A stretch of 8,489 nt of DNA. Origin: a virus (taxonomy: Duplodnaviria; Heunggongvirae; Uroviricota; Caudoviricetes). This document shows positions 1 to 3,000 of this stretch, one piece after another (positions within the stretch are counted from its first letter, which is position 1; each line of letters begins with the position of its first letter). The stretch lies in IMG/VR virus record IMGVR_UViG_2706794493_000018; one strand, given 5' to 3'. The position numbers were made by a program.

Positions 1-3000
1 TCCGGACCTGGCTGAGTTTGTGGCACTGATTTCGAAAAGCGGAGCCAATCCATTCGGTCTGACGGTGGATGCTGTGATGGAGGAGTACCGCCGCTGGCGC
101 AATGAGTCCTGGCGATACGACGGAAGTGATAAGTACCCGTGGTCTCAGCCTGTGCTGTATCACATTTGCCTCGAGATGCGTTCAAAGGGGATTGAGCGCC
201 AGATGACCGAAGGGGAATTAAAACGGCTTGCAGAACGGCAACTGACGAAATGGGCAAAGCATGTTAGTAACGGCCTGAGCGTTCCGCCAGTCCGGCGACA
301 ACTGGCGGCCCCCAAACGCCCGTCGGGGCCAACGCCAATTGAGTTGCTGAAACAGGAATATGAACGCCGGAAAGCGGCTGGTTTTGTTTGAGTTGAGAAG
401 TGATTTTTTACCGGGAGGAAATTTATGGAGACTGTTTTTGACGCACTGAAAGCGATGGGAAAAGCCACGTCGGTATAGCTGGCTGCGCGACTTGATATCA
501 GTCGTGAAGAAGTACTGAACGAGCTGTGGGAACTGAAAAAGGCTGGCTTCGTTGATAAAAGCGTATACACCTGGCGTGTGGCTGATAACAACGTTCAGCA
601 GGAACAGCCAGCGCCAGAAGAAACCACCACGGCAACAGAAGCGAAAATCTCAGAGTGCGATTTAACCGCGACGATTGAACAACGCGGACCACAAACGGCG
701 GATGAACTGGCTACGCTGTTCGGTACAACATCCCGCAAAGTTGCTTCAACGCTGGCAATGGCAATCAGCAAAGGTCGTCTGATTCGCGTAAACCAGAACG
801 GTAAAATTCGTTACTGCATACCAGGTGATAATTTACCAGCAGAGCCGAAAGTTGAATCGGTAGCGGAAACCGATGGTAAAGCCTTTCCTCAGCCAGCCGG
901 TGTTGCGTTACCGGTACAGAAAGATGCAACACAGGAAGATATTAAAACAGAAACTGTGGCGGACATTGTGCAGTCGCTGCCATCGTTTACTGCAACGCGA
1001 GAAGATGATTTGATTTTGCCATCGCTGCATATGGCAAATCGCGAACTGCGTAGGGCGAAGAATCATGTCCAGAAGTGGGAGCGAGTCTGCGCCGCGCTGC
1101 GGGAGCTGAACAAGCACCGGGATATGGTTGCCGGGATTTGTCGGAAGTCCGGGCAATGAGCGGATGGTGCAGGCCTGAAATCATGATACTAACAATGAAG
1201 GTAAAATGCATCGGCAGTCTGATTGGTCGTAGTGAGGCGGCGGTCAGGATGAAAGCCCAGGTTAAGGGAATAAGCCTGATTCTGCGGGGTGATTTTCACC
1301 AGTCAACAAAATATCCGTAGCGCGATAACGGTCAAAAATTATGGCGCTGACACTTTTGTGCCACTGGAGATGACTGTACCTAAGTTCAGGGGAGAAGAAC
1401 ACGTCCGGTGGGATGGTCGGGCCAGATTTAAAGGGCAGGTCATGGCTCCAGCCTGTACGCTGGCAATGGAGGCTGCCTGGCGGGAAATTGATATGGGAAC
1501 CACGCCACTCAGGGATTTACTGCCGGTCCAGAGAATAAATTCCTGTTACGGTTACACCACTGTGATCTTGCAAGTGCAGGAAAGTAGGTCTACACGGTAA
1601 CGCGAGTGCGTGTAACTTTTGATGTCATTCCCGTAGAAACACCGGACAAATTTTCGCTGACAGGTCATGCAGAAGGTATAAATCTGCAGATTATGGACAA
1701 TTACGGATATCCGGCAAGAGCCGGAAAAAGCATGCCGCCTCTAATTCTCAGTGGAAGATGGACTTGATTATACTCATTGCATTGTCAGAAATAGTTATCC
1801 ATTAAAGGCTGGCTATTCCAAACAGGATGTTGATTACAAAAATGTAATCAACATGTAAGGTTTATACTCTTCAATATGCGTATAATTTTCCTTATTTTGT
1901 TGACTTTAAATAACAAGCTATGCACGAGGTAAAGTCGGATAAGTTTATCTGGATGTAATATATATTATTTGTAGTGTTTATAACTTTATTTCATGATAAC
2001 CAATAAAAGGAGTTTTTTATGAGGAACATAATGGCAGGTTTTTTAATATTCCTGTCTTCTGCTGCTTATGCTGATATCAATCTGTATGGTCCTGGTGGCC
2101 CGCATACAGCCTTGCTTGATGCAGCCAAACTTTATGCCGAAAAAACAGGTATTATAGTGAACGTTCATTACGGCCCACAGAACAAATGGAATGAAGATGC
2201 CAAAAAAAATGCAGATATCTTGTTTGGCGCATCAGAACAATCTGCTCTGGCTATCATTCGGGACCATAAAGACAGCTTCAGTGAAAAAGATATTCAGCCT
2301 CTTTATCTGCGAAAAAGTATTTTACTGGTAAAGAAAGGTAATCCTAAAAATATCCGGAGTATTGACGACCTGACCAGACCTGGGATTGGCGTAATTGTTA
2401 ATGATGGTGGTGGTACCAGTAATACATCAGGCACTGGCGTCTGGGAAGATATTGCCGGACGTAAAGGGAATATAGAAACTGTCGCCGCAATCCGAAAAAA
2501 TATTATTTTATATGCGCCCAATAGCGGAACTGCACGTAAGGCTCTTGAGAATCAGCCTGGAGCAGATGTCTGGATAACCTGGGCTGACTGGGCAGCCAGT
2601 AATCCAGAAATTGGTGATGTCGTGGAAATAGCGCCAGACTACGTGATATGGCGTGATATGAACATTACAGTACGTCAGGATGCAAATGATGAAACCCGTC
2701 GATTTGCAGAATGGCTACAAACCGATGAAGCGGCGCCTGCATTCAAAAAATATGGCTGGACCAGGAAAGGCACTTGACATCCTCGTCCTTCAGGACGTGG
2801 ATTCTTTTTCCGGATGCCGCGCCAGCGGCATGTAGGGGCAGCTCACAAAACGGAAAAAATTGTACGCTAAGCCTCGCCAGGTGAACTGAATTCATTCCGA
2901 TATGGGAATTCCCATATCGGGCGAAAACGGTTTGCTGTAACGGCAGAGTTAAGTAGGATTGCTGCGGGTGCTTGAGGCTATCTGCCTCGGGCATGAACAC

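Follow-up and report, generated by a model that had tools for sequence, protein, structure and literature searches.

What a gene for a putative secreted binding protein is doing among the early genes of a prophage, with no transporter beside it, is the question raised by a stretch of viral DNA of 8,489 nucleotides (IMG/VR record IMGVR_UViG_2706794493_000018; Caudoviricetes), the whole of which is referred to here as the window. The original prediction, made from the sequence alone, described positions 1600-2810 as a self-contained moron carrying an orphan, ModA-like secreted binding protein together with its own promoter-like elements, operator candidate, ribosome-binding site and terminator. 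The analysis reported here shows that the block is the known Escherichia coli virulence-associated gene paa (adfO), carried as monocistronic cargo in the early-right region of a lambdoid prophage. Its product belongs to the AcfC/PEB3 family and is very probably an exported binding protein that stands alone.

Identity of the gene

The only long open reading frame (ORF) within positions 1600-2810 was located at 2019-2777 on the plus strand and specifies 252 amino acids followed by a stop codon. The block was found at 99-100% identity in 561 complete E. coli genome records, including those of O157:H7, O26, O103 and O111 strains, and a match was carried by 623 of 5426 genomes. The ORF is labelled 'paa: AcfC family adhesin Paa' in these genomes. 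A further 11 records of PPompW/Stx2a phages matched the block at 99.8-99.9% identity, the label in this case being 'porcine attaching-effacing associated protein Paa/adherence factor AdfO'. At the protein level, identity is 100% to the cluster that RefSeq calls 'AcfC family adhesin Paa' (WP_001449026.1). Scanning against NCBIfam showed that Paa passes the cut-off of no model, and the RefSeq name was therefore not derived from a hidden Markov model in that library.

The relationship to the Paa/AdfO of attaching-effacing and enterotoxigenic E. coli (z2053, located in O-island 57 of O157:H7 strain EDL933) is one of identity at both the protein and the DNA level. The neighbourhood is also the same as in the E. 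coli prophages that carry this gene, comprising replication genes, a DUF1627 gene, a fimbrial pseudogene, paa, hok/sok, ydfU and rusA. The window differs from those prophages in the deletion of 160 bp with the hokD (ckf) coding sequence, and in the region from ~ 5300 onwards, which is 100% identical to another O157 prophage (Q, CPBP protease and AraC-like regulator genes).

The description of an orphan secreted binding protein on a moron was thus largely sound, with the right Pfam family, the right orphan status and the right idea of a cargo gene, but it rediscovers paa/adfO without recognising the named gene. Nothing in the block is new: paa/adfO is named in RefSeq, is used in E. coli pathotyping and has been studied experimentally. 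The finding carries little weight as a discovery, paa/adfO being catalogued and the structures of AcfC and PEB3 being solved. The points of some interest are the ligand of Paa, the way in which a stand-alone binding protein yields an adherence or colonisation phenotype, and the regulation of paa.

Protein family, fold and export

Paa comprises a single, full-length PF13531 (SBP_bac_11) domain, the family named in the original prediction, with residues 20-247 aligned to profile positions 1-226 of 227 (E = 5.5e-34). A phmmer search against solved structures returned Campylobacter jejuni PEB3 (1.2e-81) and Vibrio cholerae AcfC (3.5e-81), to which Paa is 52-58% identical, and sulfate-binding proteins at only ~ 1e-4. 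An AlphaFold (AF2) model of Paa gave a predicted local distance difference test (pLDDT) value of 90.9. Comparison of this model by Foldseek gave template modelling (TM) scores of 0.90 (query-normalised) and 0.97 (target-normalised) with AcfC (4JB7) at a root-mean-square deviation (rmsd) of 1.2 Å, and of 0.88 and 0.96, respectively, with PEB3, the rmsd across both structures being 1.2-1.5 Å. The next tier was ModA (1WOD; TM 0.72/0.77, 16-17% identity), followed by sulfate-, iron- and sugar-phosphate-binding proteins. The PF13531 match places the protein in the family predicted for it rather than in an unrelated one.

An alignment of 27 family members including Paa, covering taxa from Enterobacterales to Campylobacter and Francisella, contained 54 invariant columns, and all of these are present in Paa. 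The invariant columns cluster in the motifs GPGGPH, SNTSGTG-WED, NSG and W-TW-DW. Paa, at 252 amino acids, falls within the size range of the family (248-265 amino acids).

The N terminus of Paa reads MRNIMAGFLIFLSSAAYA|D and looks like a Sec signal, with a basic n-region, a hydrophobic core and an AYA|D site. A signal peptide, as originally proposed, is predicted for residues 1-18 (2019-2072, plus strand), with cleavage at AYA|D. The mature PEB3 chains that were crystallised begin at the residue aligned with Paa D19, and low pLDDT values in the Paa model were confined to residues 1-20.

The closest known systems also differ from Paa. AcfC resembles Paa in its fold (52% identity to 4JB7), its size, its invariant loops and in having a signal peptide of the kind predicted for Paa, and is likewise a horizontally acquired colonisation factor with no transporter genes adjoining it. 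AcfC, however, is encoded in the acfB-acfC operon of a pathogenicity island under ToxT control (PMC5976639), whereas paa is monocistronic and located on a prophage. PEB3 (PDB 2HXW, 3FJ7 and 3FIR) has the same fold, the SNTSGTGVWED and GPGGPH motifs and a stand-alone gene. In contrast to Paa, PEB3 is N-glycosylated at a DFNVS sequon, where Paa has DSFSEKD and no sequon, and has Lys135 where Paa has a threonine. ModA (for example 1WOD) has a PF13531 domain and the class-II two-lobe fold, and no structure outside the AcfC family came closer to Paa, but it is encoded in a modABC operon, and paa lies in no such operon. The term 'ModA-like' is therefore correct at the level of the Pfam family and fold (TM 0.72) and wrong for the functional family, the identity being 16-17% and no NCBIfam ModA model matching Paa at E ≤ 0.001. 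Paa belongs to the AcfC/PEB3/Paa subfamily.

A binding protein without a transporter

No permease or ATPase genes were found in the window, and modB and modC were absent from both the window and the prophage. The absence of cognate transporter genes that had been noted at first extends further, as no transporter genes were present in the paa flanks of O26 and O157 genomes or in the complete 44-kb PPompW paa prophage. The pattern is typical of the family: in eight further genera or replicons (Enterobacter, Edwardsiella, Francisella, Campylobacter, E. albertii, a Salmonella IncFII plasmid, Yersinia and Raoultella), the homologue likewise stands alone, and the neighbourhoods are unrelated. The E. 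albertii homologue is inserted in the aga locus, the Yersinia homologue adjoins an M91/NleD-like gene and fimbrial genes, and the Raoultella homologue adjoins type II secretion remnants. At none of the 10 loci examined was the gene within a transporter operon, and a complete transporter operon around paa was likewise not seen in the window, in the full prophage or at the homologous loci of other genera.

In Enterobacter (locus L006, 7421-11014, minus strand), the Paa homologue adjoins a response regulator and, in divergent orientation, a hybrid sensor kinase carrying a periplasmic SBP_bac_3 domain. These neighbours are a weak hint that members of the AcfC/PEB3/Paa family may work with signalling proteins.

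The best-supported reading of these data is that Paa is an exported anion-binding colonisation factor without a dedicated transporter, which may act at the surface, as a periplasmic sensor or via an unlinked transporter. One alternative is that Paa is a true transport component. It would hand a ligand (sulfate, or a phospho- or carboxy-organic anion) to an ABC transporter whose genes lie elsewhere on the host chromosome, and the effects on adherence would be metabolic side effects. Paa does share its fold and Pfam family with ABC-type binding proteins, ModA, Sbp and AfuA among them, and PEB3 binds glycolytic intermediates (PMC8835900; PDB titles). In Enterobacter, moreover, an ABC transporter is encoded 0.7 kb upstream on the same strand, but this transporter already has its own binding protein of 362 amino acids. 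Given that the gene was in a transporter operon at 0 of 10 loci, and that prophages, plasmids and islands carry it by itself into hosts whose sets of transporters differ, a role as a transport component is considered unlikely.

The paa leader and signals for expression

The gene is preceded by a strong ribosome-binding site, as predicted: the Shine-Dalgarno sequence AAGGAG at 2007-2012 (plus strand) lies 6 nucleotides 5' of the ATG at 2019, and AAAGGA is kept in other paa lineages. A terminator is also present, although its statistics are modest. An intrinsic-terminator-like hairpin and T-run occupy 2776-2811 (plus strand) right after the stop codon, with the hairpin at 2784-2797 (extended stem 2776-2804, -13.3 kcal/mol) followed by TTCTTTTT; on folding, the hairpin was modestly better than shuffled sequences (z = -1.96). 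The paa copy found on K88 plasmids lacks this terminator, the homology ending at 2761. No Rfam match was found in 1600-2810.

The promoter-like hexamers fared less well. TATAAT at 1881-1886 (plus strand) and TTGACT at 1900-1905 were located exactly where they had been predicted. However, the -35-like TTGACT is downstream of the -10-like TATAAT, and the two therefore cannot form one promoter; neither has a partner at a spacing of 16-18 nucleotides. A consensus scan gave no sigma-70-like site in 1775-2018, so that TATAAT is outside the matches of the scan. Across 1200-3400, 5 such sites were found compared with 4.4 ± 1.7 in shuffled sequences, and the hexamers are therefore no evidence for a promoter. 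TATAAT is kept in two other paa lineages, and so in three in all, while TTGACT is not (TTAACT and TTAACG).

The operator candidate proved to be a perfect palindrome of 28 bp at 1827-1854, ATGTTGATTACA-AAAA-TGTAATCAACAT, with 12-nucleotide arms and a 4-nucleotide spacer, located 165-190 bp 5' of paa. It is far from a chance product: none of 300 dinucleotide shuffles of the window contained a perfect inverted repeat with 12-nucleotide arms, and when the surrounding 400 bp of AT-rich sequence were shuffled 2000 times, 2 shuffles did. Across genera, the upstream region could be aligned only among the three closest E. coli lineages. A paa copy with 92% protein identity, found in an IS1 context, retains a 10-nucleotide core of the arms (GTTGATTACA-AAAA-TGTAATCAAC) as well as the TATAAT, and in the K88-plasmid lineage the left arm is truncated beside IS21. 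The palindrome was not seen in an 82% copy of paa located beside a gene for a SPATE (serine protease autotransporter of Enterobacteriaceae), nor in the copies of other genera. As two of the three close lineages have kept it, the palindrome probably belongs to the paa leader and is not just an accident of a junction. It provides a concrete handle on paa regulation.

Several candidate roles for the palindrome were considered and rejected. The published operator of YdaT is TTGATT-N6-AATCAA (PMC9986795). The half-sites of the palindrome equal those of this operator, and the paa prophage encodes a YdaT-family protein. The spacing at paa, however, is N10 rather than N6; no N6 site was found in the prophage early region even with one mismatch allowed, and the N10 form was found at paa only. 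Regulation by YdaT was thus rejected as unsupported. A phage regulator with several operators was rejected in turn, as neither the arm TTGATTACA nor the whole palindrome (with up to 3 mismatches) was found anywhere else in the 44-kb prophage. Finally, the palindrome was tested as an intrinsic terminator of the fimbrial pseudogene that lies upstream. The RNA hairpin is stable (-15.1 kcal/mol, z = -3.7), but a U-run does not follow, and the palindrome is therefore no classical terminator.

A more speculative view of the palindrome is that it is an operator for a host-encoded regulator, and that Paa is a regulated ligand sensor and not an adhesin, docking on a chemoreceptor or sensor kinase, as has been proposed for AcfC, and so coupling a gut anionic metabolite or sulfated mucin to the behaviour of enterohaemorrhagic E. 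coli. This would fit the data, because the core of the palindrome arms is kept in two independent paa lineages and because orphan status is family-wide, but as a whole the proposal is tentative and more probably wrong than right by a wide measure.

Ligand and function

If Paa is an exported anion-binding colonisation factor, a probable course of events can be outlined. Transcription would probably start in the AT-rich 160 bp 3' of the conserved palindrome and end at the hairpin at 2776-2811. The protein would then be exported by Sec, cleaved at AYA|D and folded as a two-lobed class-II binding protein. Its conserved GPGGPH, SNTSGTG and NSG loops would allow it to close around its ligand, either a small anion or an anionic group carried by a host glycan.

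A number of published observations bear on this function. An adfO (z2053, O-island 57) mutant of O157:H7 showed less adherence to HeLa cells and secreted fewer proteins, and Paa has been implicated in colonisation of the pig ileum (both reviewed in PMC8565820). Paa has also been described as contributing to the formation of attaching-effacing lesions (PMC10562709), a process in which paa is implicated in pigs, and paa of EDL933 was induced in bovine rumen and rectum contents (PMC8524897). For V. cholerae, AcfC was described as a periplasmic protein that binds heparin, chondroitin sulfate and mucin, that affects chemotaxis to mucin and intestinal distribution, and that contributes to colonisation in a rabbit model (PMC5976639).

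Some points weigh against an exported anion-binding colonisation factor as described here, or at least against its details. The consensus scan identified no promoter for paa. AcfC, tied as it is to chemotaxis, was no adhesin in cell assays (PMC5976639), and the 'adhesin' label for Paa may on this analogy reflect an indirect phenotype. The ligand specificity of Paa may also differ from that of PEB3, judging from the residue at position 133, where Paa has a threonine in place of PEB3 Lys135 (the residue mutated in PDB 3FIR); this position is variable across the family.

The nature of the ligand also bears on the original suggestion of an oxyanion or metal, in which Paa would be a ModA-like scavenger or decoy for molybdate, tungstate or sulfate. 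Outside the family, no fold is closer than that of ModA (TM 0.72), and AcfC has been proposed to be 'sulfate-binding' (PMC5976639), but the evidence in that study concerns sulfated glycans and not free sulfate. There is also weak local similarity to sulfate-binding proteins near the SNTSG loop; the NCBIfam sulfate-binder models (Sbp/CysP), however, scored only 22.6, 21.5 and 19 bits against cut-offs of 288, 155.5 and 308, respectively, and their similarity is a local match of 45 residues around that loop. The ligands of the solved homologues are organic, the PDB titles giving L-phospholactate in PEB3 and D-aspartate in AcfC, and the ligands of PEB3 have been given as phosphoenolpyruvate and 3-phosphoglycerate (PMC8835900). 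Together with the low identity to ModA and the lack of any ModA model match, this makes such a scavenger or decoy role very unlikely.

Make-up of the cargo block

At ~ 1160-2940, the cargo block is both longer and more of a composite than was noted earlier. Homology to other DUF1627 prophages, which lack paa, ends at ~ 1129, and homology of the K-12 type around hokD resumes at ~ 2937. In a relative without paa, a DUF977 gene and IteAS anti-phage (defence) genes occupy the same position, and the position is thus a hot-spot for cargo. The notion of inserted cargo was therefore borne out, the variable position being between the replication genes and the hok/ydfU/rusA/Q genes. An exact empty site was sought with a chimeric query of both flanks, and no record was found that joins them.

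The order of elements in the block is a 54-amino-acid ORF, the fimbrial pseudogene, the 28-bp palindrome, an AT-rich leader of ~ 165 bp, paa, the terminator, a Tn3-family inverted repeat and a second palindrome. The small hypothetical ORF (1156-1320, plus strand) forms the left edge, right after the DUF1627 gene, and RefSeq has a hypothetical gene at the same position. The fimbrial pseudogene (1325-1858, plus strand; 'fimbrial protein' in RefSeq) is PapH-like, of the minor-subunit type, and has a frameshift and an internal stop. Plasmid pQ501 carries a chaperone-usher operon whose second gene is an intact counterpart: by BLAST, the pseudogene is 85.6% identical to this gene over 1353-1817 and has deletions of 10 and 5 nucleotides relative to it; the aligned homology covers ~ 1345-1818.

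Downstream of paa, a solo terminal inverted repeat of 37 nucleotides, GGGGCAGCTCACAAAACGGAAAAAATTGTACGCTAAG, was located at 2835-2871 (plus strand) and is the relic of a Tn3-family transposon of a Tn21-subgroup-like type. BLAST matched it to Aeromonas, Pseudomonas and Klebsiella plasmids, at the ends of Tn3-family transposase genes, and also to Xylella plasmids, where no annotated feature lies under the match. The sequence agrees at 31 of 37 positions with the Tn21 inverted repeat. No second copy of the repeat was found in the window.

A second perfect palindrome, CCGATATGGGAATTCCCATATCGG, with arms of 12 nucleotides and no spacer (CCGATATGGGAA/TTCCCATATCGG), is present at 2897-2920, between the transposon-end relic and the hok/sok homology. 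Its RNA hairpin was calculated at -21.2 kcal/mol (z = -4.45 against shuffled sequences).

The K88 (F4) fimbrial plasmids carry a paa copy of 88% identity that shares only 1833-2761 with the window and has IS21 upstream. Variants of paa elsewhere are also found beside fimbrial genes, namely K88 fae on the plasmids and fimbrial genes in Yersinia. These neighbours hint at an old linkage between paa and fimbriae.

With regard to base composition, the GC content was 0.31-0.37 over ~ 1650-2250, compared with 0.50-0.55 in the flanks. The AT-rich block of the original prediction is thus a dip that takes in the intergenic DNA and the gene's 5' half, and not all of 1600-2810. The description 'self-contained' goes too far, as no promoter was established and the block is a patchwork that includes the fimbrial pseudogene and the transposon-end relic.

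It is scarcely credible that the block is inert passenger DNA, with the gene silent in lysogens and the palindrome the chance product of two recombination junctions: the surroundings are decayed (the fimbrial pseudogene, the solo transposon end and, in the window, the deleted hokD), no consensus promoter was found, and the palindrome does lie at a junction, since fimbrial homology ends at ~ 1818 and K88-plasmid paa homology starts at ~ 1833, but 561 genome records conserve the block at 99-100% with an unbroken ORF, the RNA-seq induction reported in bovine gut contents (PMC8524897) argues against silence, a mutant phenotype has been reported (PMC8565820), and the palindrome core is kept in the independent, IS1-flanked paa lineage.

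Window context and mosaicism

The window, which belongs to the early-right region of a lambdoid prophage, is a mosaic. Positions 1-3120 are 100% identical to O157:H7 F8798. At 3120-3123, the 160 bp with the hokD (ckf) toxin coding sequence are missing (5621-5780 of reference locus L005), with 2 nucleotides in their place, while the sok/hok leader is kept; hokD was intact in all three of the reference prophages compared. The segment 3123-5343 is 98.6% identical to the O157:H7 paa prophage, and 5300-8489 is 100% identical to a different prophage of the same O157 genomes, which lies ~ 0.85 Mb away in strain PV15-279. The maximum coverage of the window in one place by any complete E. coli genome in the collection was 71%.

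To the left of the cargo block, the window contains the end of a lambda-P-like replication gene (20-391) and the DUF1627 gene (578-1159). To the right are the sok/hok leader (2966-3115; Rfam sok), the DUF968/YdfU gene (3938-4984), rusA (4997-5368) and the antiterminator Q gene (5349-5729). Two small ORFs lie between the sok/hok leader and the DUF968/YdfU gene.

Beyond Q, a gene for a CPBP/Rce1-like intramembrane protease of 274 amino acids (5875-6699, plus strand; PF02517) is a second cargo insertion, at the usual cargo position of the late operon. It is situated in an AT-rich block (GC ~ 0.35) between the Q gene and a gene for an AraC/XylS-type regulator of 237 amino acids (7320-8033, plus strand). 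Among acid-stress regulators, YdeO (104 bits) and GadX (88 bits) are most similar to the latter, both scores being well short of the equivalog cut-offs; from its sequence, it is probably a prophage-encoded regulator of the Psr type described for O157 (PMC8565820). Three phage tRNA genes follow downstream of Q at 8062-8311 (Met-CAT, Arg-TCG and Arg-TCT), the first of which is possibly Ile2, the RefSeq label of its equivalent. The final positions of the window (8388-8489) give a 5' partial match to the Rfam small RNA STnc100, cut by the window end.

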